From positions 1 to 34,695 of the forward strand of contig JBDKRC010000250.1 of assembly GCA_039683575.1 (NCBI GenBank): a stretch of 34,695 nucleotides of DNA. Direction: 5' to 3'. Position numbers and translations under genes: made by a program. The DNA comes from Armatimonadia bacterium (lineage in GTDB: Bacteria; Armatimonadota; Zipacnadia; Zipacnadales; UBA11051). Below the pieces are notes generated by a model, which had not been told where the DNA came from, searched no databases, and was given only the letters and a program-made list of their open reading frames with translations. Positions 235 through 30,391 of the stretch are shown piece after piece. Each line of letters starts with the position of its first letter. Positions within the stretch are counted from its first letter, which is position 1.

Positions 235-3200
235 CTAGTCGGCCTTCAGGTGCAGGAGGCCGTACGTCGTTGGCGGTCCCCAGTTCCCCGCACCGTCCTG
301 GGAGCGGATGTGGAAGTACCAGACGCCCGGAGCCATCGTGTCGAAGCTCTTGGCTACCTCCGTGCCCTCCGGCGTCTCGTCCGGAACCGTGGCCGGTTCC
401 TGATCGAGGGCGAAGCTGAAGCCCTTGATGCCGGTGGTGTCAGTGGCTCGCCAGCGCAGCACCGGCGGGTACTTGCCTACCTGCCCGACGATGAGGTTGT
501 CAAACCAGGCGGTGGCGCCTGCCGCGTTGTCCATCGTGTTGCGGTCGCCGATAATGATCTGCTGCACGATCAGCGCGTCCTGCGCCTGCTGGCGGCGGAG
601 CATCGGCATCAACTCAACAGCCGCGTGGCGCCACTGGTTATCGGCGATGATGCCGGGTACGCGGCCAATCACGTCGGTCGCGGCGTCGTTGAGGGTGATG
701 GCATGCCACTTGCCGCCCAGGAGAACGCTGAAGGCAAGTTTGGTGGCGGGCGGAATGCGGTAGTCAAAGGCGATCACCGGGTACTTCTCGCAGTCATAGG
801 CTTCCGTGGTGATGGTCGCCTGCATGTGGCCGCCGGCCTTTTGGTTGGTGAGCTTCAGCGAGCCACTCCCGTTCTTGGCGGTCGTGGTGTCGATTTCCAC
901 CTTAGCGCCATTCTCGCCGTCGCGGGTTGCCCACGGCACCTGCCCGTCCTCGAAGGTCTGCGTCAGCAACGTCGGGTGGGTGGTCGAGTGGATCTCGGCT
1001 GGGCGCGGGGGCGTCTTGTCGAGCGAGTAGTCCATGACCCAGCTCCACGCGGCGCGGGTCTGGACGGGGTTGCCGGCATAGTCAGAGGCGGCGAGAAGCT
1101 CGACGTCAACCTGCTTTTGATCCGGGAAGACAACCGGGTTAGGAATGACTCGCTCGCAGTTCCAGATGAGTTTGCCATCGGTGGGACGATAGCGCAGGCC
1201 CTGACCGTCCATGACATAATCGGTCCCGGCGACCTTGAGCCGCACGGAGGAGGGATCGATGCCAGCGAGGCCCTTGTCCGAAAGGGCCAATTCAATCTCG
1301 GAGACGGCGTGCTTGGCCCCGGCGGCGGGAAGCAGAGCCTGGGAGGTCGGGGCTTCGGAGTCAACCAGGAGACGGCGGCTGGTGGGTGGGCCCCAGTTGC
1401 CGGCTTTGTCCTGGGCGCGGAGGTTTAGCCAGCCGTCGGTGAGGCCCGCCAAGGTGACGTTGGTTTCTTCGCCCTGCGCGCTCAAGGTCTGGGGGACAAC
1501 TGCGCTGGAGAGGGCGTCGAGAGCCCAGGCAGCGCCCGCTATGCCACTGAGATCAGGGGCCTGCCAGGCCAGACGGACGGGGTGGACGCCGCTCATGACC
1601 GGGATCAGCTGGAAGTCATCGAGGTGATAGGTGCTGCCGGGACGGTTGCCGGCCCAGCCCCAATCGGCGATGACGAACTGGCGCACGATGAAGGTCGGCG
1701 CGGTCGGATCGTCGGCGCGGAGGAGGTCGTAGAGATTGAAGCTCGTGGTATGCCACTGGTTGTCAGGCGTGACGTTCGGGACGGTGCCGATGACGCCGAG
1801 GTCATTATCGTTGTCGGTGAACTTGATACCCTTCCAGTCGCCGTTAACATAGACGGCGAGGTCGGCGCGCAGGCGGTCGTCGCATTTGTAGGCGAAGGAG
1901 ACGATGCGATGCTTGCCGGCGTCGAAGGGGGACTGCGTGACGTAGGCGCCGAAGCGGCGGCCGGCAGTGGTGTGATAGAGCTTGAGGCTGTACTTGCCGG
2001 AGTTGGCGGTGCTGCTGTCGCGGGAGAGGACGGCCCCGCCGGGTCCGCCGTAGTTGGCCCACTGGCCGAGGTACTCTTCGAAGTCATTGTCAATGAGATA
2101 GCCGTCGCCGATCTGCAGCTTCGGGGCGGGCGGGGCGGCCTTGTCCTGTTTGGTATCGGCGCCAAAGGTCCAGTTCGCGGGAGTGGCGGTGGCATTGCCG
2201 GCGCGGTCACTGAAACCGGTGAGGGCGAGAGCGATTTGGTCGCCGTCCTTGACCGTGAGGCCAGCGGCTCGGGGGTCTATGATTAGTTTTGAGTCTTCAG
2301 GCTCGTAGGTGACGGCCGGCGAGGCGATGGTGAGGCTGGTCGGACCGAGGTCGATCTTGAGGGCGGCGAGGTCCACGCCACTGCCACCGGCATCCGAGAG
2401 GCTGAGCACCACCGGAGCGTCCTGCAGCGAGCCTCCGCCGGCGGGCTCAAGGATCTTGGCGACCGGTGCGGTATGGTCCACGCCGAAACGATAGGTGTTA
2501 TCGCCGCCCCACTTGCCGTCCTTCAGAAGCGGCCGGACGTGGGCGTAATAGGTGCCATCGGTCTGGAGATCAGCTTTGAAGGTGGCCTCTTTGGTCGTTA
2601 CGGTCTGAGGAGCTGGCTTGTTGGCTTGCTGATCAACAGTGACCGAGTAACCCTCGATCTCCTGGCCTTGGCGCGGAGTGAAGGCGAGTTCGACCTTCCC
2701 CGTGCCCGGCTGGCCAAGCATGAAGTTGTCCAGGTACCAGGTTGCGCCACTCCCGTTACCGCCGAAGCCGGCGAACAGGTAGTCTTTGTTGCTGAGGTTC
2801 CCGATCCACACGTCGGTGCAGACGGTCGAGCTCTCCAGGCCCTGCTTCTTCTGCAGGGCGCCCAGGAGATCGAAGGAGGCGTGGTGCCACTTGTCGTCGG
2901 CGATAACGCCGGGGATCTGGCCGAGTATCTCGCGCCCCGGGGCGGGTTCAGAGAAGCCGCTGAAGACCACCTCGTACGGCTTGTCGGCGACCGTCAGATA
3001 CAGGTTCGTCTTCACGTCGGGGGACAGCTTGTAGTCAAAGGCCAGTTGGGATAGTTGCTTGGCGTCGAAGCGATCTGAGATCTTGACCCCGAAGTTGCCC
3101 CCCGCGGCACGGTTGATAAGCTTCAGGCAGTGCCCTGTTCCGTCAGGGCCGCCGTCAGCGAGGCCGCACAGTGCGCCTTGGTCGGCATCGTAGGTGACGA

Positions 3201-4134
3201 AGGTGCCGGTGCTGGTCTCGAAGTCATTGTTGATCGAGGGATGCGTCGGCGAGCTGATTGTCAACTCGGGCTCGCGTACCGTCGCCTTCATGCTCTCCGG
3301 ATCGAGCAGCGGCGGCATCGGGTCACGGGGGAGCTTTTCCTTCGCGTAGTAGATCTTCACCCGCGGGGTAATCATGTCGTTCTTGAGCACCCACAGGCCG
3401 ACGCGTCCGCCGGGAAGGGGATTGGGGTCGGTGCCCTCGAGCACGAGTTGCTCGTCCAGGTAGACCTGCAGCTTCTGAGCCTGCTTGCGGACGCGCAGCG
3501 ACCACCACTTGCGGTGCCAGGAGTAGGTCTCAGGCTGCCCGTTCTCGTAGATTGGCCACAGCGCCTTGGGGTCCCGCGATTCGGCGATGACCTTGGTGCC
3601 GCGCATGATGCGCGTGTAGCGGTTGTCGTCGCCGCCAACTATGAAGGCATACCCGCTGTCCGGGTTGGCGCCGTCCCCGCAGATGGTGATGTTCAAGTCA
3701 TTGGGATGCAGGTAGGTCGGGTCGCGGTTGAGGCGCATTTTGAAGGCGACGTAGGCTTCGACGGTGATGTCGCCCATGAACTCGCGCTTGTTCCACATCG
3801 CCGCGATGCCATTGGGTGAGTAGCCGCCATACCATGACCACTGCGGGCTGCAGGTCCAGCGGTTGGTCGCGTTCCACTCGCCGCTGCGGACGAGCCAGTC
3901 GGTGGGAGCGCTGCTGAAGGTATAGTCGCAGACGTTGGCCGACTGCAGGTCCACTGCGCCAATGTCAGCGCCAAGTGCGCCGCCGGAGAAGAACACCCGG
4001 CCCTTCTCGACCGCGAGAGCGGCCTGGGCAAGGGCATCGTCCCGAGCCGGCGCGGGAGTTGCCTGAGCCCACAGTGACGCGGGCAGGATAACTACCAACA
4101 GAATCAGAGCCACTGTCCAGCGTGTGACCATCAT
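235..4134 (-). CDS. large secreted protein (~1299 aa): N-terminal lectin/DUF1080-like beta-sandwich plus three repeated carbohydrate-binding + Ig-like modules
   Basis: Signal peptide MMVTRWTVALILLVVILPASLWA after a GAGG RBS. Repeated motifs NDFE/QTFE...LKL...AFDY/SFAY...D.KWH/D.QWH/D.QWR and HVRP..DGKWG / RAQDKAGNWG / RSQDGAGNWG. Start moved from the track's 4290 to ATG 4134. Confidence 0.8.
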   Translation of the reverse strand: MMVTRWTVALILLVVILPASLWAQATPAPARDDALAQAALAVEKGRVFFSGGALGADIGAVDLQSANVCDYTFSSAPTDWLVRSGEWNATNRWTCSPQWSWYGGYSPNGIAAMWNKREFMGDITVEAYVAFKMRLNRDPTYLHPNDLNITICGDGANPDSGYAFIVGGDDNRYTRIMRGTKVIAESRDPKALWPIYENGQPETYSWHRKWWSLRVRKQAQKLQVYLDEQLVLEGTDPNPLPGGRVGLWVLKNDMITPRVKIYYAKEKLPRDPMPPLLDPESMKATVREPELTISSPTHPSINNDFETSTGTFVTYDADQGALCGLADGGPDGTGHCLKLINRAAGGNFGVKISDRFDAKQLSQLAFDYKLSPDVKTNLYLTVADKPYEVVFSGFSEPAPGREILGQIPGVIADDKWHHASFDLLGALQKKQGLESSTVCTDVWIGNLSNKDYLFAGFGGNGSGATWYLDNFMLGQPGTGKVELAFTPRQGQEIEGYSVTVDQQANKPAPQTVTTKEATFKADLQTDGTYYAHVRPLLKDGKWGGDNTYRFGVDHTAPVAKILEPAGGGSLQDAPVVLSLSDAGGSGVDLAALKIDLGPTSLTIASPAVTYEPEDSKLIIDPRAAGLTVKDGDQIALALTGFSDRAGNATATPANWTFGADTKQDKAAPPAPKLQIGDGYLIDNDFEEYLGQWANYGGPGGAVLSRDSSTANSGKYSLKLYHTTAGRRFGAYVTQSPFDAGKHRIVSFAYKCDDRLRADLAVYVNGDWKGIKFTDNDNDLGVIGTVPNVTPDNQWHTTSFNLYDLLRADDPTAPTFIVRQFVIADWGWAGNRPGSTYHLDDFQLIPVMSGVHPVRLAWQAPDLSGIAGAAWALDALSSAVVPQTLSAQGEETNVTLAGLTDGWLNLRAQDKAGNWGPPTSRRLLVDSEAPTSQALLPAAGAKHAVSEIELALSDKGLAGIDPSSVRLKVAGTDYVMDGQGLRYRPTDGKLIWNCERVIPNPVVFPDQKQVDVELLAASDYAGNPVQTRAAWSWVMDYSLDKTPPRPAEIHSTTHPTLLTQTFEDGQVPWATRDGENGAKVEIDTTTAKNGSGSLKLTNQKAGGHMQATITTEAYDCEKYPVIAFDYRIPPATKLAFSVLLGGKWHAITLNDAATDVIGRVPGIIADNQWRHAAVELMPMLRRQQAQDALIVQQIIIGDRNTMDNAAGATAWFDNLIVGQVGKYPPVLRWRATDTTGIKGFSFALDQEPATVPDETPEGTEVAKSFDTMAPGVWYFHIRSQDGAGNWGPPTTYGLLHLKAD

Positions 4135-4211
4135 ATGTCCTCTCAAAGCGGAAAACCAATCAGGAGGCCGCAGAGCCTCTAGCGTGCTGTCGCGGTGACA
4201 TCCATAGGGTG

Positions 4212-4265
4212 CCAGTAGGGCAGGCGGCTCGCCTGCCCACGCGGGCGAGCCGTCCGCGCTACTGG
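4212..4265. repeat. inverted GTAG REP doublet (REPIN-like)
   Basis: CCAGTAGGGCAGGCGGCTCGCCTGC (4212-4236) and its imperfect reverse complement GCGGGCGAGCCGTCCGCGCTACTGG (4241-4265), in an intergenic gap. Confidence 0.65.
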
Positions 4266-4294
4266 ACTTGCCTAGCCAATTGCGGGACACTACA

Positions 4295-6265
4295 CTAGCG
4301 TTGCGCCGTCAAGACGGGCTGTTCGTTGACCCGAACAACCACGAGGCCGCTCTCGCGGCTGAAAAGAATGTTGGCGTCACCCTCGACCTCTGTCTCAGCG
4401 ACCTTCACTGGTTGGTCGGCGGCGGTCAGGGCGAGTTTGAGCTTCTTTGACTTCTCCTCGGCTGAAACCGTGAGTGTCAGACCACTCTTGTCGCCTGGAG
4501 CCCCGCCGATGGTCGCCCGACAGCTTCCGGTCTTCGAGCCCACCGCAGGGATGACGAAGATTACGCTGGTTTCGCCGAAGTAGTCACCCTTGGTCCAGAA
4601 CGCGTTCTGGTCCTCAGCGGTCGGCGTCCAGGGGGCCTTAGTGCTGGCCCACCCCGCCATCTCGGGGTGCTTGTCTATGATCGCGAACTCTTTGGTGATG
4701 TGTGACCCCTTGCGCAGCGGCACAAGGGAAAGACGGACGTTGTCAAACTGCGACGGGCCATCGGCATATAGAGCGATCGCGCCGCCGGTGACACCTGCTG
4801 ACAGTGCCTGAAGCCGGATCGTGTCATCCACGAGGCCTGTGAGAAGCCCGTCTTCGACACTTACGCGCAGTTGATGCTTTTGTGCGGAGCCCGGAAGGGC
4901 TTTCTCTGCCAGTACCGCGAGCCCCTTATCGGTCATCTGAGCGAGTTGAACCTTGCCGCGGTAAGCGGCTTTGGAGCCCGCGGGCGCCCAGCGCAAGACA
5001 CAGAAACCTTTGGGCCCATTGTAGGCAAAAGCCAGTCCTGTGCCGCCGCCGGTGCTGGTGGAGTCGACCGCACAGGTGTAGCGCTCCCAGTTCTGCCCGG
5101 CAACGCAGAGCGCGCGCTCGGCTCCGCCGTAGGTCATGACCCCAGTCTTCTGGGTCCAGCCAGTGCCATCCACCCACTTGCCGGGGGTAACCTGCGCGAA
5201 ATTCTCGCGGAAGAGTTCCCATTCCGCGCTGGCGACGTCATCAAAGAACGCGCCCGCTTTGCCCTCAACGTAGAGCCCGGTCTGGCCCTGCCCAAAGAGC
5301 GGGGTCTCGACCTGCAGCAGTAGTTCGTCATCCACGCTGCACTGCACGACACCATCGCAGACCTGCGCGCGCAGCTTGTACCACTGTCCCGGCAGGTAGG
5401 CCCCCGCCCTCTCCCCCAGCACCTTCTCCTGACCGTCACGTACAGCGACGAGCTGCAGGGCGTTCAGAGCTTCATCCGGGAGCCGGCGCCAGCGCAACAG
5501 CAAGTAGTTTTTGTCGTTCTGGTAGTAGAAGACGAGACCAATCGCGCCCTGCCCCATCGGGCGAATGGCGCTCTCAACCATGTAACGGTCCCAGAACCAG
5601 TTGCCGGCGATGCTGATGGCGCGGTCACCGCTGCCGAAGTATGAGAAGGCGTTGGCGGACTTATCAGCCTCTTCGCGTCCGGCCTGTTGGTCGTCGCGCA
5701 GCGTGCGAGCCTCCCAGACACCGACTACGGGCTGCCAGACGCTCTGGGCGCCCTCCTCGCGGACGAAGTCATCTCCCATCTCCATGTCGCCGACAGGCTG
5801 CACCTGGAAGTCCGCGAGGGTGCCGCCAGAGACGCGGCTGCCGACGAGACCATCCTGAAGATACGGATCATAGGCCCTGAGTACCACGAGGTTGTCCCAC
5901 ACGAGGGACATGCGCCACTGACGGCGCTGGAGGGTGAACGGCACGGTGCTGCCGTCCTTCAGGGACACTTTGACCGCGTTGCCGAGCGGACGGGCCTTGC
6001 CGCCGCTGATCACCTGGATTCGGGCGAGCCCCCCGCTGACTGTCAGCAGGTAGTGCTTCTTCGTGTCCTGCTGGTAGTTGAAGGCAAGCTCTAGATCGAG
6101 GCTCTTGGCGCTTTTGACAGTAAGGGAGCCGTTGGCGTTGAAGTCACCTTCGCCGGGGTCTTCGAGGAAGGCAAGCCCGGCAGCCTGGGAGGCAGTAGTG
6201 GAAAAGCCGCATGCCACGATGATACCGAGACATACGGCGAAAGCGCTGAAACGATAAATCTTCAT
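4295..6265 (-). CDS. secreted protein with repeated concanavalin/DUF1080-like beta-sandwich domains
   Basis: 656-aa ORF with a signal peptide. Trp/Gly-rich beta-strand motifs (GQWYKLR...GVVQCSVDD...GQTGL...FDDV; FDNV). Confidence 0.75.
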   Translation of the reverse strand: MKIYRFSAFAVCLGIIVACGFSTTASQAAGLAFLEDPGEGDFNANGSLTVKSAKSLDLELAFNYQQDTKKHYLLTVSGGLARIQVISGGKARPLGNAVKVSLKDGSTVPFTLQRRQWRMSLVWDNLVVLRAYDPYLQDGLVGSRVSGGTLADFQVQPVGDMEMGDDFVREEGAQSVWQPVVGVWEARTLRDDQQAGREEADKSANAFSYFGSGDRAISIAGNWFWDRYMVESAIRPMGQGAIGLVFYYQNDKNYLLLRWRRLPDEALNALQLVAVRDGQEKVLGERAGAYLPGQWYKLRAQVCDGVVQCSVDDELLLQVETPLFGQGQTGLYVEGKAGAFFDDVASAEWELFRENFAQVTPGKWVDGTGWTQKTGVMTYGGAERALCVAGQNWERYTCAVDSTSTGGGTGLAFAYNGPKGFCVLRWAPAGSKAAYRGKVQLAQMTDKGLAVLAEKALPGSAQKHQLRVSVEDGLLTGLVDDTIRLQALSAGVTGGAIALYADGPSQFDNVRLSLVPLRKGSHITKEFAIIDKHPEMAGWASTKAPWTPTAEDQNAFWTKGDYFGETSVIFVIPAVGSKTGSCRATIGGAPGDKSGLTLTVSAEEKSKKLKLALTAADQPVKVAETEVEGDANILFSRESGLVVVRVNEQPVLTAQR

Positions 6266-6305: not shown

Positions 6306-6821
6306 CTATCTCTCCACCCGCACAGGAACGTACCTGAGGTTCTTGGTCAAGATGAACTGGTCGAGCTTGGCCCCGTCCTCGCGGTTCTGAACTACCACCT
6401 GGACGTTACCGGCGGGAAGGTTCATCTTGGGGCCCTTCACCCAGTGCCACTTGCTGTAGGTGCCGTCCTGGCCGAACTGCACGGGCGGGTTGCCACCGAT
6501 CTTCACGAAGAAGGAGTTGCCGCACGAGTCATACCACATGGCGCGGCCCCAGAACTGCCAGACGCCGGCCGAGGGGACCTTGACGGTGTACGTGGCGCTG
6601 CCGGTGTCCACAGGCGCGCCCTCGGTCTGCGCATGCGGCCGGTGGACCGGGATCTCGATGAAGTAGCCGCCGGAGGCATTCGCGCTGGCGGTCTTGCGCA
6701 TCGAGGGCGTGATCTTCGTGTACTTCTCGGCCTCCACAACCACTTTGATGGCGCTGGCGCAGTAAGCCACGCCTACAGCGACAACGATAAGGGCAACAGC
6801 GCGTGTAACATGCTTGAGCAT
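6306..6821 (-). CDS. small secreted protein with a galactose-binding-like/CBM fold
   Basis: Signal peptide followed by VVVEAE..., NASGGYFI, and a C-terminal REDGAKLDQFILT typical of CBM6/35-like jelly rolls. GGAGG RBS. Confidence 0.7.
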   Translation of the reverse strand: MLKHVTRAVALIVVAVGVAYCASAIKVVVEAEKYTKITPSMRKTASANASGGYFIEIPVHRPHAQTEGAPVDTGSATYTVKVPSAGVWQFWGRAMWYDSCGNSFFVKIGGNPPVQFGQDGTYSKWHWVKGPKMNLPAGNVQVVVQNREDGAKLDQFILTKNLRYVPVRVER

Positions 6822-6853: not shown

Positions 6854-8233
6854 CTATAGCTCGGCCGCGTTCTGACTGCCGCGGACACGATTTTCAAGTG
6901 CTTTGGCGGCGATCAGGGCGAATACCAGCGCCCAGATAAGCCCGGTTCCTCTGACGAAGAGGCTGCTGAACAGGTTAGTCAGCAAAAGCGAGAGCGCGGC
7001 GCCATGCAGGCCACAGGCCAGGCCGCGCGTCCAGGGCGAGTCCGCGTGCATCCAAAGCTTCCCCGCCTGCCGCCAGAAATACCCCAGGTAGGACAGCAGA
7101 CAGACCATACCCGCAAACCCCATGCTGCCACCGATGACCAGGTACAGGTTGTTCGTATCAGGCTCGGACTTCTTCACATTCGGCAGGAAACCGTAGTACT
7201 GCGGCATGCCGATGTTGGCCTGGTAGTTCCCAGCCCCAACTCCCAGCATGAAGTTCTGTGCCATCATGTTCAGCGCCGGCATCCACTCGATCCAGCGCTT
7301 CTTGAGCACCGGCGCCTCGTTCACGGGTTGCTCCGCGCCAGAGTCAGCCTGCATGACCTTGAAGATCGGACCCTCTTCGAACGGGTTCAGCATCTCCTTG
7401 AAGGCTTGCCGGTTCAGTGGCAGGAAGGCGACGGTGAAAAGCAGGAACGCCGCGGCGACGCCGGCGGTGATGGCAGCCCGGGCGCCCCCTCCCCAGGTGA
7501 GCGCTGTGAGCGTCAGTATTAGCGCCAGGACGAACACGAGCGGGGGGGCCACCATCGTCACGGCCCCCAGCAGGATCACCGCCAGCGCCCAGTAGCGTTC
7601 CCACTGACGGTCGGTCCACATCACCAGCCCAAAGAAAACCGGCAGCGCGAGGCACAGGAAGCCGCCATAGGCGCTGCGGCTCTGGAAGACGGAGTTGACA
7701 CCCATCAGGAGTCCGGGATCAGAAGTCGCCGGGGCAGCCGAGGCCCGGACGTAATGGTATAACCCGTACAAGACTACTAACGATGTTGAGGCCAAGAGGG
7801 TCCATAGCGCTCCGCGACGCCGCTCGTCGGTGGTGAGGACATTGACGAAGAGCATATACGCCGCGACGAAGTATAAGCCGATCTGAACGATCTCGAGGAT
7901 TGCGTCTTTGAGGCTCTCGGCACCGAGACCCGAGAGCGCAGCGACGACGAGCAGGGCCCAGATGTGCTTCGGCGCCCAGACCCATTCACGCGCCTGGCGG
8001 CGGCTGAGCGACCACAGGAGCCAAAGCCCCACCACGGCAGCGGCCGCAATGTCGGCGTATGCGATGAATGGCCCGTGCTTGCGGTCCACCGCATACGCAA
8101 TCTGGCTCGGGGCGACGAAGACGAGCGCCAAAGTGAGCCAGTAGAGCCACGTCGGCACCGGGAGCGGTTGCCAGATGGCTTCTTCGCGGGGCGCTGGCTG
8201 TGCGGAACGGGCGGCTATCCGGTTCATGCCCAT
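6854..8233 (-). CDS. O-antigen ligase/polymerase (Wzy_C, WaaL-like) membrane protein
   Basis: About 12 hydrophobic segments, a large loop, and R...W..ALNMM..N.MLGVGAGNY...NNLYL...GFAG matching the Wzy_C pattern. Confidence 0.8.
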   Translation of the reverse strand: MGMNRIAARSAQPAPREEAIWQPLPVPTWLYWLTLALVFVAPSQIAYAVDRKHGPFIAYADIAAAAVVGLWLLWSLSRRQAREWVWAPKHIWALLVVAALSGLGAESLKDAILEIVQIGLYFVAAYMLFVNVLTTDERRRGALWTLLASTSLVVLYGLYHYVRASAAPATSDPGLLMGVNSVFQSRSAYGGFLCLALPVFFGLVMWTDRQWERYWALAVILLGAVTMVAPPLVFVLALILTLTALTWGGGARAAITAGVAAAFLLFTVAFLPLNRQAFKEMLNPFEEGPIFKVMQADSGAEQPVNEAPVLKKRWIEWMPALNMMAQNFMLGVGAGNYQANIGMPQYYGFLPNVKKSEPDTNNLYLVIGGSMGFAGMVCLLSYLGYFWRQAGKLWMHADSPWTRGLACGLHGAALSLLLTNLFSSLFVRGTGLIWALVFALIAAKALENRVRGSQNAAEL

Positions 8234-17886: not shown

Positions 17887-18144
17887 CTAACCTCGCTTTT
17901 CGGCGACGTACGCGGCGATACTATCGACAGTCGAGAAGGTCTCCGTATTGAAGTCGGCGTCTTCGAGTGAGATGCCGAAGTCTTCTTCCAGGCCCACCAC
18001 GATCTCAAACAGGTTCACCGAATCGATACCATAGCTGTCCATGAGGTTGGCATCATCGACTATGTCGGCGGGCTCGACATTGAGGAACAGCCTTTCCACG
18101 ATCATGTCCTTGATCTGCTGCTTCAGTTCAGCATCCACTGCCAT
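17887..18144 (-). CDS. acyl carrier protein
   Basis: 85 aa, acidic, YGIDSV phosphopantetheine Ser motif, LEEDFGI. AGGAGG RBS. Confidence 0.92.
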   Translation of the reverse strand: MAVDAELKQQIKDMIVERLFLNVEPADIVDDANLMDSYGIDSVNLFEIVVGLEEDFGISLEDADFNTETFSTVDSIAAYVAEKRG

Positions 18145-23973: not shown

Positions 23974-24951
23974 TCAGTATGCAACCACATCAGCAATGGC
24001 AGTGGCGATACTCTTGAAATCAGGGATTGCGGCGCGTTCCAGCGTGCGACTCGACGGCACGGGCGTATCCAGGGCCGCTACACGCTTCGGCGGTGCTTGC
24101 AGGTAATCGAAGCACTCCTCGGTCACCCGCGCCACGATCTCCGCGCCAACCCCGCCGGTCAGTGTCCCCTCCTCCACCACGACCACGCGGCCGGTCTTCT
24201 CCAGCGACGACTTGACCGCCTCAGCATCGAGCGGCGCCAGCGTCCGCAGGTCCAGAACCTCGGTAGCGACGCCGTGCTCGGAGAGAGCCTCCGCGGCCTT
24301 CAGCGCTTCCTCCACCATGCGGCCATAGGCCAGCACGGTCACGTCCTCGCCCTCCAGCGCTACCCGCGCCTGCCCTAGCGGTACCGTATAGTCACCCTCC
24401 GGCACTTCGCCACGGTGACCATAGAGAATCTTGCTTTCGAGGAAGATGACCGGATCATCCCACCGAATGGCGCTCTTCAGCAGCCCCTTGGCATCCTCGG
24501 CGGTGGAGGGACAGACAACCACAAGCCCCGGTGTAGCGACGAAGAAGCGCTCCAGACTCTGGGAGTGCGTCGGGCCATACCCTCTCCCCGCGCCGTAGGG
24601 GCAGCGCACGACCAGCGGCACGTGGCACTGCTCGCCAAACTGGTAGTGGAACTTCGCCGCATGGTTCACAAGCTGGTCCACGGCGAGGGTGATGAAGTCC
24701 ATGAACATGATCTCGGCGACGGGCCGCAGGCCGGTCATGGCCGCACCCACGGCCACGCCCACGAAGCCACCCTCGGCAATCGGGGTGTTCAGCACCCGCT
24801 CGCAGCCGAAGCGGTCAACGATGCCCTCGGTCAGCTTGAACGCGCCACCGTAGCCCGCGATGTCCTCCCCCAGGAGTATCACCGCCGGGTCGCGCTCCAT
24901 CTCTTCCTCGAGCGCCGCTCGAATTGCGTGTGAGAAGAATAGTTCTGGCAT
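23974..24951 (-). CDS. 2-oxoacid/acetoin dehydrogenase E1 beta subunit (PdhB/AcoB-like)
   Basis: GEDI..YGGAF, NTPIAE, GLRPVAEIMFMDF, THSQ, DAKGLL and DLRTLAPLD motifs. Confidence 0.93.
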   Translation of the reverse strand: MPELFFSHAIRAALEEEMERDPAVILLGEDIAGYGGAFKLTEGIVDRFGCERVLNTPIAEGGFVGVAVGAAMTGLRPVAEIMFMDFITLAVDQLVNHAAKFHYQFGEQCHVPLVVRCPYGAGRGYGPTHSQSLERFFVATPGLVVVCPSTAEDAKGLLKSAIRWDDPVIFLESKILYGHRGEVPEGDYTVPLGQARVALEGEDVTVLAYGRMVEEALKAAEALSEHGVATEVLDLRTLAPLDAEAVKSSLEKTGRVVVVEEGTLTGGVGAEIVARVTEECFDYLQAPPKRVAALDTPVPSSRTLERAAIPDFKSIATAIADVVAY

Positions 24952-24968: not shown

Positions 24969-25829
24969 CTATATGGGCGGCATCTCCGCCATGTCCGGAA
25001 TTGCCGGCGCGCTGGTCTCCATCTCCGCCATCGGCGGAATTCCGGCGGAGGTCTGCGAGGCCTCGGCCATAGGCGGCAGCATGCTCTGCTCACGGTTGAT
25101 CAGCATGGGCAGCAGCCTGTCCCCCGCCGTCCGCTGCTCTTCCTGTGCCGAAGGCGGTGCCGCAACCGGGGCAGCGCCCGGCGGCCGCACTTCCTGCGCA
25201 CGACGTTCCTGGGACTGGGTCGAGTCGCTCCGCCGCGCCCGCACCTCCTGTTCGGTCTCGACCGCGGCGGGCATCTCAAGCCGCACACGAGGCGCGCCGG
25301 TCCCTGGTTTGGCTTGGGGCGAAACGGGGGCCACCGGCGAAGGAGACGATGGCGGCTCTTCAGACGGCGTCGTACCACCAGTTCGCCCCCGGAGCTCGAC
25401 CTCGGTCTCGACCGGGGCGGGCATCTCAAGCCGGACGCGCGGCGCGCCGGTTCCAGGCTTGGCTCGAGGCCGCACCACGGGCGTTCCCGGGAGAGGGGGC
25501 GGCGGCGTCGGAGCTTGCTGCTGAGCCATTCCGGCCCGTTTCTCTATCTGAGCGAGGGAGTCACGGGCGGCGGCGCGCAGGTCCTCATTCGGACTGGTCA
25601 TAAACGGCATCAGTTCGCCAGCGGCTTCTGGACCACCGATCTGCCCCAGTTCCTTGATCGCAATCCATTGCACCGGCTCGTCACCGCTCTTGAGCATCCG
25701 CAGCAATGACTGCTGGCGTCTTTGGGACAAAGGCAGTGAGGGCGACATCTGCCCCTCTGCGGCAGCTTTTATCTCACCCGCCACGAATTTCAGAAGATCG
25801 CCGATTCCTGGTTCAAGGTCCTTGGGCAT
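24969..25829 (-). CDS. hypothetical protein: HEAT-like repeat N-terminus plus Pro-rich disordered tail with repeated motifs
   Basis: VQWIAIKELGQIGGPEAAGELMPFMTSPNEDLRAAARDSLAQI is HEAT-like. The duplicated 21-aa motif differs mostly at synonymous sites, which supports this frame. GGAGG RBS upstream of ATG 25829. Confidence 0.75.
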   Translation of the reverse strand: MPKDLEPGIGDLLKFVAGEIKAAAEGQMSPSLPLSQRRQQSLLRMLKSGDEPVQWIAIKELGQIGGPEAAGELMPFMTSPNEDLRAAARDSLAQIEKRAGMAQQQAPTPPPPLPGTPVVRPRAKPGTGAPRVRLEMPAPVETEVELRGRTGGTTPSEEPPSSPSPVAPVSPQAKPGTGAPRVRLEMPAAVETEQEVRARRSDSTQSQERRAQEVRPPGAAPVAAPPSAQEEQRTAGDRLLPMLINREQSMLPPMAEASQTSAGIPPMAEMETSAPAIPDMAEMPPI

Positions 25830-25856
25830 GCCTGACACTACCTCCGGAATCGAGCT

Positions 25857-26834
25857 CTATACCTGGCCCAGTCCCGCCGTCGCGAAGACGCCCCGCGCCA
25901 CGCCTCCGGCGTCGGGCTCAGGGCTCTGCCGCGCGAACTCAACGGCTTGAGCGACCTCCTCCTCAACCTGCTCCCGCGCCGCAGCTAGTTGCTCCTGCGT
26001 AGTCCCAGCCTCCAGCAGTCTCTCCGCCATCACCCCGAGCGGATCGCGGGCCAGCCACCGCTCCAACTCGCCCTCAGGACGGTACTCGCACTTGTCACTC
26101 TTCGAGTGCCCGCAGTGACGGTAGGTCCGGGCCTCGACGATGGTGGGCCCATTCCCCTCCCGCGCCCGCTGGACCGCCTGCTGGGTCGCCTCGCGCACCG
26201 CAAAGTAGTCGTTGCCGTCCACCGTCACACCGGGGATGCCGTAGGCCTCAGCCCGTCGCGAGAGTCCTTCGATCTTGAAGGTCTGAGCCACCGGCGTGCT
26301 CATCGCGTAGGCGTTGTTCTCGATGAGATACACAATCGGCAGGTCCCAGATGGCGCCCATGTTCACGCCTTCGTGGAAATACCCGTTCCCGCAGGCGCCG
26401 TCTCCAAAGAAACAGAGCACCGCCTTGCCGGTGCGCTGCAGCTTCTGGGTCAGCGCCGCGCCAGTCGCCACCGGGATCATGCCTGCGGTAATGCCGTTGG
26501 ACCCCAGGAATCCAATCCCGAAGTCCGCCATGTGCTGCGAGCCGCCCCGCCCGGCAGAGTACCCGGTCGCCTTGCCGAACAGCTCGGCCATGATCCGGCC
26601 CGTGTCCCCGCCTTTGGCCAGAAAGTGCCCGTGGCCGCGGTGGTTGGAGGTGACAAGGTCACCCGGCCCCAGCGCCGCAATTCCGCCCACCGCACACGCC
26701 TCCTGCCCCACACAAAAGTGCGAGGTGCCGCCGATCAGCCCCTCGCTAAAGATATTAGCCAGCACTTCCTCAAATCGCCTGATCAGCACCATCAGGCGGT
26801 AGTGTTCGAGCAATTCGTCGGGGGAATAGGTCAC
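25857..26834 (-). CDS. TPP-dependent 2-oxoacid/acetoin dehydrogenase E1 alpha subunit (PdhA/AcoA-like)
   Basis: GQEA, SNHRGHGH, GRGGSQH, TPP motif GDGA...ENN and TYR..GHS. Start at GTG 26834 (GTGA overlap with the KS stop). Confidence 0.93.
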   Translation of the reverse strand: MTYSPDELLEHYRLMVLIRRFEEVLANIFSEGLIGGTSHFCVGQEACAVGGIAALGPGDLVTSNHRGHGHFLAKGGDTGRIMAELFGKATGYSAGRGGSQHMADFGIGFLGSNGITAGMIPVATGAALTQKLQRTGKAVLCFFGDGACGNGYFHEGVNMGAIWDLPIVYLIENNAYAMSTPVAQTFKIEGLSRRAEAYGIPGVTVDGNDYFAVREATQQAVQRAREGNGPTIVEARTYRHCGHSKSDKCEYRPEGELERWLARDPLGVMAERLLEAGTTQEQLAAAREQVEEEVAQAVEFARQSPEPDAGGVARGVFATAGLGQV

Positions 26835-29059
26835 GGAAGTCTCCGCAATGATATGGAGGCACCCAGCCGCGTAGCGCGGGCGTCTCGCCCGCCTGCGCCG
26901 GTCACCATGAGGTTCTGGCCCCCGCTCGTCAGCAGCTTCGCCGCTAGTTCCAGCGCCATACTCGCCGCAAAGGTGTGGCCCCAAGCCGGGGTCTCAGTCG
27001 TCGCGGCCGCCTCCCCCTTCCGCAGCGTCACGTCAAGCACCTGCGCGAGAGCGGTGGCCCCGCGGCGCGCAGCGTGCTCGGCACTCTCCAGCACCAGCAG
27101 GCAGGCCCCCTCGCCGGGCACGTAATCAGGCTGCGCCTGCGCCAGATACCGCAGCAACGGCTCACTGAGAGCCTCCACGCCCCCGGCTAACACCACTTCG
27201 GCGCGGCCGTCGGCGATGATCCGCCAGGCGTAGTCAAGCGCGCTGGCCGCGGAGACGTCGCCGACACAGAAAGTGGAGGTCGGCCCCTGCAGGTCGTACT
27301 CCACCGCAGCGAGACTGGTCGGGGTGTTGGCAAAGGAGTGGGTGAAGATCACAGGCGAACCAAAGCGAACGCCCTTGGACTGCACCCGCGCGGTCATGTT
27401 GGCCATGGAGTCGAGACAACCAAACGCCGTCCCCAAGCACAGCCCCACCCGCTCGTGCTCAAGCTCCCGCCAGTCGAGCCCCGCGTCATCCCACGCCAGC
27501 GCACAGGCTGCCAAGGCGAGTTCGGAGCAGCGGTCCAGGTAGGTCTTCTCGCTCTCCAGGTAGTCTTCCACGACGAAATCGAGGCACTCAGCCAGCAGCG
27601 GCAGACCATGGCCAGTCAACCGCTCGGGCGCGCGCCGGCCCTCACGGCCTTCGGCCAGCCCCTGTGCAAAGTCGTCGCGACCGATCCCAATCGCCGAGAT
27701 AGGCGCGACACCTGTCACCACTACGTCATGCTTCAACACATATGGACCGGGAACAGCGCAAGTTACCGCGGTCGGCGCTTTGGGTGGAGCCTCGGAAGCA
27801 GTCTCAGGTGGCGGCCCAAATACCACACACGCGTTGCTCCCCCCTACCCCTGCCGAGATCGTGGCCGCGTAACGCACTGTGGCTTCACGCGCCTCGTTCG
27901 GCACATAGTCCAGATCGCACTCCGGGTCTTTCTCACGGTAGTTGACCGTAGGCGGCACCACACCCGTCTCGATGGTCTTCACGCACGCCAGGGCCTCCAC
28001 CGCCCCCGCTGCACCCATCAGGTGCGCGATGGCACCCTTGATTGAACACACCGGGATCTCGTAGGCGTGGCCGCCCAGCACACTCTTGAGGGCCTCGGTC
28101 TCCGCTACGTCGTGCGGCTTGGTGCCGGTCCCGTGGGCATTTATGTGGTCAAGCTTCGCCGAATCAAGCTGCGCGTCGTTCAGCGCCCCGCCAAGCACCC
28201 GCGCCATCCCTGCGCCGCCCTTGTCGGGGGCAGTGAGGTGATAGGCATTGTTGTTTTGCCAGGAGCCGAGCACTTCGGCGTAGATCTCGGCCCCGCGCGC
28301 CCGGGCGCTGTCGAGGGACTCCAGCACCAGCAGCGCGGCGCCTTCCCCAAACATCGTCCCGCTGCGGTCGGCGGAGAAGGGCCGGATGTCCTCCGCCGTG
28401 ATGGTGTGCAGTACCGAGAGCCCGGAAAGCGGCGAGGGGGAGAGCACGTCATGTCCGCCGGCGAGCATCGCCTCGGCCTTGCCGGCGCGGATGAGATCGA
28501 AGGCATACCCGACCGCCGCCGCGCCTGAGGCGCAGGCAATTGAGAGCAGACTCAGGGGGCCGGTGAGGTCAAAGGCGTGGGCAAGGCAGTCGAGGGCGGT
28601 GTGAAAAGCGAAATCATCGAAGTCCGACGGGCTACCGTCACGGCAGAAGTCTTCCCAGGCCAGCCCGCCCCCAAAGTTCGTGGAGAGCACGGCCCCAACA
28701 GGAAAATGGGGACTGACACCATTTTCCCCCTCACCGCGTTCGGAGGCCACCAGAGCCACGCTGGAAAATGGTGTCTGTCCCCGTTTTCCGCCACGCAGCC
28801 CTGCATCCCCCAACGCCTCTCCCGCCGCATGCAGCAGGAACTGCACCGCCAGATCGGGGGCCTTCCGCAGGCCGTAGGCGCTCGGATCGAACGTCCAGTC
28901 GTTGATCTCCCCGCCGTTTTCGTTGCGCAGGCCGGTCGGATCGAGGCGGCTGAGGCGCTTCATCCCGCGCTCTCCGGCGCACAGCCGCTGCCAGAATATC
29001 GGCACACCCAGCCCTAACGGCGTCACAGCCCCAAGCCCCGTCACCACTACACGATTCAT
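26831..29059 (-). CDS. fabF: beta-ketoacyl-ACP synthase II-like domain fused to a second, degenerate KS (chain-length-factor-like) domain
   Basis: Domain 1: NRVVVTGLG, ACASG (Cys), NAHGTGT (His), SIKGAIAHLMGAAG (His). Pro/Ala linker. Domain 2: DVVVTGVAPISAIG...GEGACLLVLES, with VGDVS in place of ACASG and a truncated C-terminus. Confidence 0.88.
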   Translation of the reverse strand: MNRVVVTGLGAVTPLGLGVPIFWQRLCAGERGMKRLSRLDPTGLRNENGGEINDWTFDPSAYGLRKAPDLAVQFLLHAAGEALGDAGLRGGKRGQTPFSSVALVASERGEGENGVSPHFPVGAVLSTNFGGGLAWEDFCRDGSPSDFDDFAFHTALDCLAHAFDLTGPLSLLSIACASGAAAVGYAFDLIRAGKAEAMLAGGHDVLSPSPLSGLSVLHTITAEDIRPFSADRSGTMFGEGAALLVLESLDSARARGAEIYAEVLGSWQNNNAYHLTAPDKGGAGMARVLGGALNDAQLDSAKLDHINAHGTGTKPHDVAETEALKSVLGGHAYEIPVCSIKGAIAHLMGAAGAVEALACVKTIETGVVPPTVNYREKDPECDLDYVPNEAREATVRYAATISAGVGGSNACVVFGPPPETASEAPPKAPTAVTCAVPGPYVLKHDVVVTGVAPISAIGIGRDDFAQGLAEGREGRRAPERLTGHGLPLLAECLDFVVEDYLESEKTYLDRCSELALAACALAWDDAGLDWRELEHERVGLCLGTAFGCLDSMANMTARVQSKGVRFGSPVIFTHSFANTPTSLAAVEYDLQGPTSTFCVGDVSAASALDYAWRIIADGRAEVVLAGGVEALSEPLLRYLAQAQPDYVPGEGACLLVLESAEHAARRGATALAQVLDVTLRKGEAAATTETPAWGHTFAASMALELAAKLLTSGGQNLMVTGAGGRDARATRLGASISLRRLP
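28701..28789. repeat. inverted doublet of 27-bp palindromes inserted in-frame in the ketosynthase gene
   Basis: GGAAAATGGGGACTGACACCATTTTCC (28701-28727) and GGAAAATGGTGTCTGTCCCCGTTTTCC (28763-28789) are reverse complements with 2 mismatches. Confidence 0.8.
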
Positions 29060-29082
29060 GGTATGTTCCTATCCCCCATTCC

Positions 29083-29829
29083 CTACATCCGCAATCCGCC
29101 GTCAACGCTGAAGACCTGCCCCGTAACATATGAGGCTCGGTCTGAGCACAGAAACGCCACCAACCCCGCGACCTCGTCCGGCTCACCGAAGCGCTGCATC
29201 GGAATCATCCCCAGCAGCGCCTCACGGCGTGTGTCGGGCATGTCTTTGGTCATGTCGGTCGCGATAATCCCGGGGGCCACCGCGTTCACGCACACCTTCT
29301 GCAGCGCCAGTTCACGGGCGAGGGCCTTCGTCAACCCCACCACACCCGCCTTAGCCGCCGCATAGTTCGCCCGCTGCAGGTCGCCCATGAGCCCCGCGTC
29401 AGACGAGATGTTCACGATTCTCCCCCACTTGGCCTTGAGCATCTGCCGCACCGCAGCCTTGCAGCAGAGGAACGTACCCTTCAGGCATGTATCAACGACT
29501 TCCTCAAAAGCATCCTGGTTCATGAACGCCAGATACTGGTCCCGTAGCAACCCCGCGTTGTTGACGAGTATCTCCAGCCCGCCCAACTCACCGGCAGTGC
29601 GGGCCACCATCTCCTTCACCGCAGCCTCGTCCCGCACGTCCGCCTGTACCGCGATAGCCTTGCGGCCCAGCGCTGCAATCTCGGCGGCGACAGCGTCAGC
29701 GGCTTCGGCGCTCGTGTTGTAGTTCACCGCCACATCGGCCCCGCACCGTGCCAATTCCAGCGCGATTGCCCTGCCAAGGCCCTTGCCCGCGCCGGTGACC
29801 AACGCCCGCCGACCGCTGAGATCAATCAT
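29083..29829 (-). CDS. fabG: 3-oxoacyl-ACP reductase (FabG-like SDR)
   Basis: [26 protein letters not shown] (YxxxK), VNAVAPG and VDGG motifs. Confidence 0.92.
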
Positions 29830-29835
29830 GGCGCC

Positions 29836-30324
29836 TCACTTCTGCTCCAGGTACTTGCGGACATCCGCCTCATCCACCTGTTGCGCCTCCCCGAGCCACC
29901 CGGCAACCGCTTCGAGCGTCACGCCGGCTTCCCGTGCCACCCGGCGCGCTGCCGGCGTTGCCCGCACTCGCTTGCCCAGCTTCGCCGCCAACTGTGCCTT
30001 GAGATCGTCATCCGCCCGCGAGGCCGCCTGATGCTCGGCCAGAAGCCGCGCATTCTCCGCCTCCACTCCCTCCGGCACCGCTTCTCCCATTTGCGCCACA
30101 AAGGCCAACACGTATCCTACCGGTATGACGCTCTTCTCGGGCGCATAAATCCGCAGAAGCGTCCCCCGGCACTCCATCTCATACTCAAAGGTGGCTTTGT
30201 CGGTGATGATCTCGCATAGCGACTCACCCACCTCGAGCATGTCGCCTTCCTGCTTGAGCCAGCGGTTGAGCGTGACTTCATCGAGATTCTCGGCCCACTT
30301 CTCAACCTTGAGCAAATGACCCAT
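29836..30324 (-). CDS. stand-alone lipoyl domain + peripheral subunit-binding domain protein (E2-like, no catalytic domain)
   Basis: WLKQEGD...EIITDKAT lipoyl-Lys motif, then RVRATPAARRVAREAGV PSBD motif. Stops at 162 aa. Confidence 0.88.
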   Translation of the reverse strand: MGHLLKVEKWAENLDEVTLNRWLKQEGDMLEVGESLCEIITDKATFEYEMECRGTLLRIYAPEKSVIPVGYVLAFVAQMGEAVPEGVEAENARLLAEHQAASRADDDLKAQLAAKLGKRVRATPAARRVAREAGVTLEAVAGWLGEAQQVDEADVRKYLEQK

Positions 30325-30362
30325 GTTATACCCTTTGACAGCAGCTTCTTGATCTTCAGCCG

Positions 30363-30391
30363 AGTATACACAGCCCCCGAGACAGCGTCAA
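30363..30391 (-). promoter_or_regulatory. sigma70 promoter for the long minus-strand operon
   Basis: Minus strand TTGACG - 17 nt - TATACT with an extended -10 TG, about 40 nt upstream of ATG 30324. Confidence 0.8.

Follow-up and report, generated by a model that had tools for sequence, protein, structure and literature searches.

A candidate acyl-glycan operon of an Armatimonadia bacterium, with a predicted acyl supply from a lipoyl carrier, E1 and a ketosynthase

The 34.7-kb contig C250 (JBDKRC010000250.1) of a metagenome-assembled genome of an Armatimonadia bacterium (6.23 Mb, 96% complete) was analysed over its whole length, and is called the window below. It carries 23 genes, g1 to g23, which could belong to one system: a short acyl group bound to an acyl carrier protein (ACP) would be coupled to a glycan, and the system would also assemble this glycan, flip it and polymerise or ligate it at the cell surface. 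We give this reading about an even chance. Such a coupled acyl-glycan system is supported by the synteny in relatives, by the division of the two E1 subunits between loci and by the joint loss of modules. The gene content and the linkage of the cluster are conserved and its catalytic motifs are intact, and what sets it apart is the predicted acyl supply, which combines a lipoyl carrier, E1, a ketosynthase and FabG. The protein families were assigned by Pfam and NCBIfam scans of 30 open reading frames (ORFs) of the window. The features are as follows, with the scores in brackets.

30363..30391, minus strand: sigma-70-like promoter match TTGACG-17-TATACT upstream of g1 (pattern match only)
29836..30324, minus strand: g1, lipoyl carrier of 162 residues with a lipoyl domain and a peripheral-subunit/E3-binding domain (Biotin_lipoyl 32.8 bits, E3_binding 27.8 bits)
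29083..29829, minus strand: g2, FabG-type 3-oxoacyl-ACP reductase (TIGR01830 291.9, cut-off 297.75; NF009466 268.5, cut-off 222)
26831..29059, minus strand: g3, ketosynthase (residues 1-~430) fused to a Cys-less half of about 300 residues resembling a chain-length factor
25857..26834, minus strand: g4, E1 alpha, binding thiamine diphosphate (ThDP) (E1_dh 264.3 bits; TIGR03182 346, cut-off 393.85)
24969..25838, minus strand: g5, HEAT-repeat and Pro-rich protein (HEAT_2 32.2 bits)
23974..24951, minus strand: g6, E1 beta (NF006667 377.2, cut-off 321; pyruvate dehydrogenase (PDH) E1-beta subfamily)
21286..23943, minus strand: g7, secreted protein of 885 residues, glycoside-hydrolase-like as a lead only
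20415..21311, minus strand: g8, soluble GT2 glycosyltransferase (Glycos_transf_2 86 bits)
18181..20400, minus strand: g9, glycyl radical enzyme of 739 residues, dehydratase (PFL2) type (PFL-like 490 bits, Gly_radical 82 bits)
17887..18144, minus strand: g10, ACP (PP-binding 45.7 bits)
17051..17881, minus strand: g11, alpha/beta-fold protein, hydrolase-2-like, with Arg at the nucleophile elbow (GLRLG) (TIGR03101 124.3, cut-off 202.75)
16149..16988, minus strand: g12, alpha/beta hydrolase, hydrolase-1-like, with a Cys-Asp-His triad (GDCSG) (TIGR03100 98.4, cut-off 168.45)
14968..16173, minus strand: g13, GT4 glycosyltransferase (Pfam/NCBIfam)
13846..14964, minus strand: g14, GT4 glycosyltransferase (Pfam/NCBIfam)
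12558..13859, minus strand: g15, GT4 glycosyltransferase, EpsE-like (NF041876 197.4, cut-off 400)
10805..12520, minus strand: g16, MurJ-family flippase, second paralog (MurJ 195.8 bits)
9676..10815, minus strand: g17, GT4 glycosyltransferase, stp2-like (TIGR03088 162.9, cut-off 409)
9053..9679, minus strand: g18, LipB octanoyltransferase (TIGR00214 182.2, cut-off 83.55)
8236..8973, minus strand: g19, hydrophobic protein of 245 residues, probably membrane-bound, no Pfam or NCBIfam family
6854..8233, minus strand: g20, Wzy_C-domain membrane protein, polymerase or ligase type (Wzy_C 36.9, cut-off 31.7)
6306..6821, minus strand: g21, secreted or anchored CBM6/CBM35-like module (predicted jelly roll, mean predicted local distance difference test (pLDDT) score 82.4)
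4295..6265, minus strand: g22, secreted protein of 656 residues, probably with repeated ConA-like (DUF1080-type) domains
235..4290, minus strand: g23, secreted protein of 1351 residues (sub-threshold Cip1-like match only)
124..162, minus strand: perfect 17-bp hairpin (162-146 / 140-124, 5-nt loop) downstream of g23

The cluster was compared with 40 genomes of the same order from seven families (41 genomes when its own is counted). The ketosynthase search (E<=1e-100) gave best matches in 35 of the 41, and no match at this threshold in G004, G007 (66% complete), G011 (fragments only), G023, G033 and G037. Orthologs of g12 (at least 50% identity) were present in 36/41 genomes; g12 was not found in G009, G023, G033 and G037, and G007 gave a weak match at the level of a paralog only. 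In G002, which belongs to the same genus, 21 of the 23 genes are colinear, with g5 and g7 missing, and in G018 and G028 of another family (f4) the cluster is colinear from the ketosynthase to g23 or to the end of the fetched sequence, without g9. The order g1, g2, ketosynthase, partner half and g4 is conserved across the genome loci.

Metagenome contigs with fused-hydrolase proteins were also scanned, and 43 loci of at least 6 kb were analysed. Locus L104 holds in order g1, g2, ketosynthase, partner half, g4, g6, g8, g10-g17 and g21 (26-58% identity), L110 and L141 resemble it in arrangement, and in 11/43 loci the E1 genes lie directly upstream of the GT2-ACP-hydrolase genes. No further conserved enzyme was found by Pfam among the extra ORFs of L104, L110, L141 and G018. 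Linkage of the acyl and glycan genes in relatives was the check that the initial annotation had named for its proposal, and the proposal withstood it, with the two blocks contiguous in G002, G018, G028, L104 and L110. Of the related loci, 39/44 are labelled Armatimonadia, Armatimonadota, Armatimonadetes, Candidatus Zipacnadia/Zipacnadum or WS1, four are labelled bacterium or uncultured bacterium, and one is a weak match labelled Myxococcota. This last locus (L094) was rejected as the same system, with a 32% partner-half-like match and no other cluster gene.

The cluster is split in G008 (own family, other genus) and in G020 (family f6). Locus A consists of (g1, g2,) ketosynthase, partner half and E1 alpha. 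Locus B starts with E1 beta (70-73% identity), GT2, ACP, hydrolase 2, hydrolase 1 and three GT4 genes, and continues with MurJ, GT4, LipB, Wzy_C and g21-g23. E1 needs both subunits, yet these are divided between an "acyl" and a "glycan" locus, which argues that the two blocks work together; this is the strongest single argument for a joint function. In family f5 (G019, G024), ketosynthase, partner half, E1 alpha and E1 beta stand together, and the row ACP, hydrolase 2, hydrolase 1, GT4 up to MurJ and GT4 is located elsewhere.

Whole modules have been lost together. G023, G033 and G037 (92-93% complete) have no orthologs of the ketosynthase or partner half, g12, LipB or g1 and no cluster-type E1 alpha (best 39-45%), while one strong MurJ is kept. 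G004 (95% complete) keeps g8, g10-g17 and g19-g23, and the ketosynthase with its partner half, a cluster-type E1 alpha (best 47%), g1 and LipB were not found in it. From these variants, LipB travels with the lipoyl/E1/ketosynthase module, and the ACP-hydrolase-glycan block can stand alone. The earlier proposal of one system is thus supported by linkage, the divided E1 and co-loss, but its chemistry is still inference.

A profile of g12 relatives (E<=1e-40) matched in 77 of 301 sampled Armatimonadota genomes, and in 57 of the 238 of high quality. The matches were concentrated by family (21/27, 11/12, 5/6 and 4/4), and other families had none (0/31, 0/18, 0/17, 0/15 twice and 0/13). Strong matches of the partner half fall in the same families, as read by eye from the tables. 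The full tally of the partner-half profile (224/301, E<=1e-30) was set aside as inflated by FabF, and only the strong matches were used.

Insertions and variants were seen in some loci. Two IS200-like (Y1_Tnp) transposase ORFs lie between E1 alpha and E1 beta in G018 (L027:9554-11860), where the cluster is otherwise colinear. A PhoU_div/PHO4 phosphate-transporter pair lies between FabG and the ketosynthase in G008 (L035:2811-4560), and G006 has an unannotated gap here that would fit the same insert. The variant L154:2397-14601 contains GT2, hydrolase 2, hydrolase 1, three ketosynthases, ACP, a zinc-ADH-type (enoyl) reductase, a MaoC dehydratase, a ketoreductase, a methyltransferase and an amine oxidase, so that the hydrolase pair is joined there to a full reducing ketosynthase set.

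The Pfam and NCBIfam scans agree with the initial annotation on the lipoyl carrier, FabG, E1 alpha and beta, ACP, two alpha/beta-fold proteins, LipB, GT2, four GT4, the MurJ-family protein and the Wzy_C protein, and likewise on the lack of a dehydratase, enoyl reductase, E2 catalytic domain or E3 in the window. Its gene list was correct as far as it went but left out g5, g7, g9 and g19. For the acyl supply, g1 ends after the subunit-binding domain, with no E2 catalytic domain on the chain. Its lysine motif TDKA is invariant (own sequence and three orthologs), and no paralog of g1 was found elsewhere in the genome at E<1e-5. The reductase g2 carries the Ser and YxxxK motifs. The protein g3 had been annotated as a fusion of two ketosynthases, which has to be corrected: the second half is a thiolase fold of about 300 residues without the Cys, whose position is taken by D, G, G, S, D and D in six sequences. 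The first half has an intact Cys-His-His triad (Cys, His, Lys and His invariant in 45/45 sequences). The two halves are fused in some relatives and encoded by two adjacent genes in others.

The likely start of g4 is the GTG overlapping the stop codon of g3, and its ThDP motif GDG...NN is present. Its best paralog in the same genome is 45% identical, and both cluster E1 subunits share 45-48% identity with paralogs elsewhere in the genome. The alpha subunit is PDH-like yet under the cut-off of TIGR03182, while the beta subunit is above that of NF006667. In g10 the serine of the DSV motif is invariant (own sequence and eight orthologs), and the best NCBIfam match is AmcB (69.3, cut-off 80). No LipB paralog was found in the genome, leaving g18 as the sole LipB found; LipA is encoded on contig C164, and one Lpd (E3) above cut-off on contig C238, both outside the cluster.

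A free-standing E2 catalytic-domain protein of 237 residues with the motif DHRSVDG is encoded on contig C43 (G000:C43:13638-14351, locus L175:4639-5352). It has no lipoyl domain and does not lie beside E1 genes. Its orthologs occur in 39/41 genomes, including the cluster-less G023, G033 and G037 and also G004. It was therefore rejected as the missing half of a split E2 with g1, and since it does not track the lipoyl carrier, it is kept only as a possible helper.

The best NCBIfam matches of g12 and g11 are TIGR03100 (hydrolase 1) and TIGR03101 (hydrolase 2) of the exosortase-A-associated proteins, both below the cut-offs. The initial annotation was right in seeing two alpha/beta-fold proteins but passed over this kinship. 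The g12 ORF extends to 17072, with the ATG at 16988 as the likely start (the closest relative has 279 residues). An exhaustive search was made for related hydrolases with clustering at 50%, and the best 150 representatives were listed. Among them the nucleophile elbow of the g12-like domain carries Cys in 136/136 aligned sequences (15 were gapped fragments), His in 145 and Asp in 148, and 50 are fusions of hydrolase 2 to hydrolase 1. C112, D224 and H255 of g12 are invariant in an alignment of 48 sequences, and the nucleophile position of the g11-like half is Arg in 48/48 aligned. One fused hydrolase met in the searches is labelled Kiritimatiellae. TIGR03100 and TIGR03101 are the best models for 31/37 sampled representatives of the superfamily, of which two pass the cut-off of TIGR03100 and none that of TIGR03101.

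A heterodimer of g11 and g12 is supported by structure prediction, which backs binding rather than demonstrating it. The complex model scored 0.87 (runs 0.88, 0.87 and 0.87) against 0.00 for the best control. Among solved complexes 116/157 reach that mark, and among mismatched pairs 2/215; because alignments of our own were used for the model, these counts apply only roughly. Contacts agree between runs by at least 83%, the pLDDT of the partner is at least 83, and the predicted interface uses the conserved motifs PFAEEKK..HR / HGWAGYR..PH and RG.GDS. The thiol nucleophile of g12 would suit a transfer from the thioester of acyl-ACP to an acceptor.

For the glycan block, the position of the GT2 gene g8 directly upstream of the ACP is conserved in relatives. 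A better MurJ is encoded on contig C264 (260.7 bits against 196.4 for the cluster copy), and cluster-less relatives keep one strong MurJ, so g16 is regarded as an extra paralog and was rejected as the sole housekeeping MurJ. The Wzy_C protein g20 carries conserved loop motifs. Its structure model was unusable (mean pLDDT 58.5, conserved loop <50), and it was assigned to neither ligase nor polymerase. The membrane protein g19 is weakly conserved in G002, G004 and G008.

"Secreted CBM proteins" had been listed as well. This is upheld for g21, whose predicted fold matched CBM6/CBM35 by Foldseek (E about 1e-7, target TM 0.72-0.75). It is a lead only for g22, whose Atlas features resemble the DUF1080-type lectin fold (0.95, 155 shared). 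The link to g23 is only that its paralog contigs, C93 and C281, are those of the g22 paralogs. Both g22 and g23 are conserved in the clusters of relatives.

The remaining genes g9, g5 and g7 seem to be lineage-specific additions. The glycyl radical enzyme g9 has the motif GCIE (active-site Cys, and Glu two residues on) and the glycine radical motif RVSGYS; it scored 504.4 with TIGR01774, below the cut-off of 678.2, and its nearest structure is the B12-independent glycerol dehydratase 1r8w (386 bits). The slot between GT2 and ACP is also occupied by this enzyme in G002 (72%) and in L140 (60%, about 4500-7000), which repeats the arrangement of GT2, glycyl radical enzyme and ACP, and g9 was absent from the other related clusters examined. 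That it returns at this slot in L140, an unrelated metagenome contig, points to a real though optional role. By tblastn with g9, eight further matches to glycyl radical enzyme paralogs were found in the genome, which encodes three activases, none of them in the window.

The protein g5, wedged between E1 alpha and E1 beta, consists of a HEAT repeat followed by a Pro-rich region, two near-identical repeats of about 30 residues and a PMAEM-type tail. It has no homolog in its own genome or in the clusters of relatives, and is an insert specific to this genome. The protein g7 gave no Pfam, NCBIfam or PDB sequence match. Its Atlas features resemble alpha-glucosidase, GH123_N and DUF6259 clusters (0.97, 218 shared), which is a lead only. 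It has paralogs in its own genome, and the equivalent slot of L140 holds a GH5+CBM_4_9 protein.

As described in the initial annotation, the 23 genes are consecutive on the minus strand; the ORFs lie head to tail and tightly packed from 30324 down to 235. Many overlapping stop and start codons had been claimed as well: 7 of the 22 junctions overlap, with the longest ORFs assumed and starts unverified (g3/g4 by a GTGA stop/start overlap), and the other 15 are gaps of 2-79 nt. The single consensus promoter was recovered as a 10/12 match, with 1 found against 0.2 expected in shuffles of the 1.6-kb region. The strong terminal hairpin is indeed present and begins 73 nt past the last stop codon, but it has no T tract, and the terminator scan called 0 sites.

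The metatranscriptome matches came from four runs of one study as assembled contigs, in short pieces of 95-100% identity across most of 11500-31400. The best run covers 24/30 bins, the uncovered parts carrying no meaning, and a few contigs bridge g2/g3 and g9/g10/g11. RNA-library contigs stack very deeply over 30430-30540, with joints to 26867-26898.

A GC-rich repeat of about 36 nt brackets the operon in the same orientation (183-218 and 30485-30520, both read on the minus strand), with the core GCGTCGCAGGGGGCTC[A/G]TACCCCGCCG; allowing 5 mismatches, 12 copies were found on 10 contigs. Upstream of the operon lie a divergent Peptidase_C26/glutamine amidotransferase gene (30316-31323, plus strand), an SLT lytic transglycosylase (31293-32888, minus strand), a prepilin-type DUF1559 protein (32882-33538, plus strand) and a BtuC/FecCD permease (33625-34674, minus strand). 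The long C26 ORF call overlaps the promoter region of the operon, so its true start is probably further downstream.

On the reading as one system, the free-standing carrier g1 would be lipoylated by LipB (g18) together with the unlinked LipA. The PDH-type E1 (g4, g6), docked on the binding domain of g1, would decarboxylate a 2-oxoacid, probably pyruvate, and leave the acyl group as a thioester on dihydrolipoyl-g1. As the cluster lacks an E2 catalytic domain, the active-site Cys of the ketosynthase g3 would receive the acyl group straight from g1 or by way of a helper. There g3, with its Cys-less partner, would condense it with malonyl-ACP (g10), and FabG (g2) would reduce the product to 3-hydroxyacyl-ACP, most simply (R)-3-hydroxybutyryl-ACP. 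The g11/g12 heterodimer could take the acyl group on Cys112 of g12 and transfer it to a hydroxyl or amino group of a sugar chain, which GT2 and the four GT4 enzymes would build on a lipid carrier primed elsewhere. The chain would be flipped by the extra MurJ paralog and polymerised or ligated by the Wzy_C protein, and the CBM-like secreted proteins g21-g23 may bind or process it outside the cell.

Several points weigh against this reading. Every chemical step, the acyl identity and the acceptor are deduced and none was observed, and RNA data in the form of assembled contigs can show neither transcription nor a single transcript. We know of no enzyme that loads a ketosynthase with an acyl group taken from a lipoyl arm. 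As the only LipB found in the genome, g18 may also serve housekeeping complexes, and the C43 E2 catalytic protein could make ordinary acyl-CoA instead. With no dehydratase or enoyl reductase in the cluster, the housekeeping fatty acid synthase (FAS) might process the chain, and "3-hydroxyacyl" is not secure. Neither an initiating phosphoglycosyl transferase nor a chain-length regulator nor an outer-membrane exporter was found by the domain scan of the window; the genome has three Bac_transf genes and three to four of the MraY type at other places. In families f5, f6 and part of f1 there is no linkage between the acyl block and the glycan block. G004 has ACP and hydrolases without the E1/ketosynthase module, so the acyl donor can have another source, and 3/44 genome loci carry an E1-beta paralog (45-47% identity) about 5 kb upstream of g1.

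Other explanations share these genes out differently. The product could be a glycolipid: the hydroxyacyl chain would be the aglycone for the glycosyltransferases, or g12 would make an ester-linked hydroxyacyl oligomer like RhlA or a polyhydroxyalkanoate (PHA) synthase, and the MurJ paralog would export the glycolipid. RhlA uses 3-hydroxyacyl-ACP, and a Cys-Asp-His triad on an alpha/beta fold resembles PHA synthase; the nearest solved relatives of g11 and g12, however, are small serine esterases and not RhlA or PhaC. A ketosynthase with a partner like a chain-length factor hints at controlled iteration, and L154 joins the hydrolase pair to three ketosynthases, ACP, enoyl reductase, dehydratase and ketoreductase beside GT2. 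An initiating phosphoglycosyl transferase is missing from this and the related annotated clusters, as a glycolipid would allow, but such transferases are present elsewhere in the genome, and MurJ-family and Wzy_C proteins usually handle polyprenyl-diphosphate-linked glycans. On balance we consider the glycolipid unlikely. Quite unlikely is an arrangement of separate functions, in which g1, E1, the C43 E2 protein and Lpd make acyl-CoA as an ordinary split pyruvate/acetoin dehydrogenase, ketosynthase, FabG and ACP are FAS paralogs, and the rest is a normal polysaccharide locus, linked by shared regulation only. The parts for it exist (an E2 catalytic domain with DHRSVDG, Lpd and LipA elsewhere in the genome, a unique LipB), and the two blocks are unlinked in several families. 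The E2 protein, however, does not track the lipoyl carrier and persists in cluster-less genomes among its 39/41, and other E1 paralogs (35-48% identity) are available for housekeeping. Nor would separate functions account for E1 alpha at the ketosynthase locus and E1 beta at the GT2-ACP locus in G008 and G020, for modules lost together, or for the conserved order from g1 through g2, ketosynthase and partner half to g4.

The starter could also differ, with the E1 pair acting on a ketose or hydroxyketone in the manner of QncN/QncL and delivering a glycolyl or oxygenated C2-C3 unit through the lipoyl arm, its precursor supplied or modified by g9 where present. Precedent is given by QncN/L/M and SclQ1-4 (PMC6335953). 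E1 alpha is under the PDH equivalog cut-off (346 against 393.85), but E1 beta passes that of the PDH E1-beta subfamily (377.2 against 321). Two lineages share the glycyl radical enzyme in the slot between GT2 and ACP, but it is absent from the examined related clusters other than G002 and L140, and the lipoyl domain here is unfused to an acyltransferase domain; such a starter is improbable. Still less probable is a protein target, for which the Wzy_C protein would be an O-oligosaccharyltransferase and the secreted g21-g23 its acyl-glycosylated substrates. The Wzy_C domain is common to ligases, polymerases and protein O-oligosaccharyltransferases, the locus has no chain-length or export genes, and the block ends distally with conserved g21-g23 in G002, G004, G008, G018 and G020. 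Against this, the CBM fold of g21 and the lectin-like features of g22 fit glycan binding or processing better, and the g20 model is too poor to classify it.

If the reading as one acyl-glycan system holds, a widespread gene set without any function so far would gain one that can be tested: the hydrolase pair occurs in 77/301 sampled Armatimonadota, and besides these on numerous metagenome contigs and in proteins with Kiritimatiellae and Pseudomonadota labels. The trio of hydrolase 1, hydrolase 2 and ACP, so far annotated by association only, would gain a role, parts of a 2-oxoacid dehydrogenase would have been recruited to feed a ketosynthase, and acylated surface polymers would be expected in these phyla. 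To our knowledge, and no search having been made, no cell-envelope chemistry is known for them. A bolder and rather doubtful version combines two claims: that g1 gives the E1-made acyl group directly to the ketosynthase without CoA or an E2 catalytic domain, and that the heterodimer of Cys-hydrolase and Arg-pseudohydrolase is a new family of acyl-ACP:glycan acyltransferases. The direct handover would be a new priming route for fatty-acid or polyketide synthases, and the role of the heterodimer would explain the long-unassigned hydrolase 1/hydrolase 2 genes in exosortase-A polysaccharide loci of several phyla. The split and loss variants (G008/G020, G004, G023/G033/G037) offer natural controls for experiments.

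The initial annotation had called the operon undescribed, and no paper on this gene combination was found in the searchable literature, subscription-only papers aside. With the same limit, no paper on the function of TIGR03100/03101 was found, and the sole mention of TIGR03100 was the annotation of B. cenocepacia Bcam1334.

Compared with known systems, the acyl supply resembles a PDH-type complex in its heterodimeric E1 with ThDP/pyrimidine-binding domains, in the DKA-lysine lipoyl domain with a subunit-binding domain and in the E3 available on C238, and differs in that the E2 catalytic domain is not on the lipoyl chain. The enzyme g9 shares the Gly-radical motif and the GC[IV]E Cys/Glu motif with B12-independent glycerol dehydratase. 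Its N-terminus is shorter than in the class (739 residues in all, where most of the solved relatives listed have 776-849), and the aligned region shows local differences from 1r8w. Unlike dehydratase-type glycyl radical enzymes, it lies inside a glycan/acyl operon without an adjacent activase.

QncN/QncL/QncM and SclQ1-4 are described as an E1-like/lipoyl/ACP relay for the supply of glycolicacyl-ACP to non-ribosomal peptides (PMC6335953). The likeness lies in the set of parts: a biosynthetic cluster provides a ThDP E1-like pair, a lipoyl domain and its own ACP, which there bring an acyl unit out of central metabolism onto the carrier protein. Their lipoyl domain is fused to an acyltransferase (E2 catalytic) domain, whereas g1 is free-standing with a subunit-binding domain; downstream lies a non-ribosomal peptide synthetase there, and a ketosynthase with glycan genes here.

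The ketosynthase g3 is like those of type II polyketide synthases (AmcF-AmcG, actinorhodin), whose Cys-His-His ketosynthase has a thiolase-fold partner without the Cys, paired with or fused to it, and a dedicated ACP, and the actinorhodin ketosynthase 1tqy is among its PDB matches. AmcF-AmcG with the ACP AmcB is described as a ketosynthase and non-catalytic partner for a single C2 extension (PMC10698177). The scores stay under the cut-offs of AmcF (NF058662, 252.8 against 325) and AmcB (NF058660, 69.3 against 80), and FabF models outscore AmcF for g3. Classical chain-length factors have Gln at the Cys position for decarboxylative priming, whereas the partner half of g3 is shorter (about 300 residues) and has Asp, Gly or Ser instead. 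An adenylating loader, cyclase or aromatase of the type II kind is not present here.

The glycan genes (one GT2, four GT4, a MurJ-family paralog and a Wzy_C protein) correspond to a Wzx/Wzy-type pathway, unlike which the window holds no initiating transferase, chain-length regulator or outer-membrane exporter. With exosortase-A (XrtA/PEP-CTERM) loci the operon shares the adjacent hydrolase 2-hydrolase 1 pair beside ACP and GT4 genes in a polysaccharide locus, and g17 has the XrtA-system glycosyltransferase stp2 as its best match. The hydrolases score below the cut-offs of those families (g12 98.4 against 168.45, g11 124.3 against 202.75), and the acyl supply is the E1/lipoyl/ketosynthase/FabG set. 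Companions of the exosortase-A hydrolase families are an acyl-CoA ligase and a decarboxylase dependent on pyridoxal 5'-phosphate (PLP), and the scan of 30 window ORFs turned up neither an AMP-binding nor a PLP-decarboxylase domain.

No ORF of the window was recognised as an exosortase by the domain scan. On another contig, near its end, genes for an XrtA-like exosortase (206.6 bits, below the cut-off of 208), a protein of the EpsI family and a polyprenyl glycosylphosphotransferase follow one another (G000:C162:55688-57945, locus L182:9689-11946). A link of the operon to this exosortase was considered: its orthologs persist in the cluster-less G023, G033 and G037, and no co-variation was shown. 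g21-g23 end without a PEP-CTERM tail, no genome-wide search for such tails having been made. A second exosortase is located on C52 beside an IS1380 transposase. The operon is a relative of the uncharacterised exosortase-A sets of hydrolase 1, hydrolase 2 and ACP.

Carrier-protein-dependent acylation of surface polymers is known from DltA-D, in the D-alanylation of teichoic acids, and from RfbK-O of V. cholerae O1, which places tetronate on perosamine. In both, as here, a small acyl group is held on a dedicated carrier protein of the polymer locus and then moved to the glycopolymer, and g10 has a weak match to DltC (26.9 bits), while their loaders and transferases are other ones. By this analogy, with its chemistry deduced from the genes, the operon may be regarded as a variant of carrier-protein-dependent glycan acylation.

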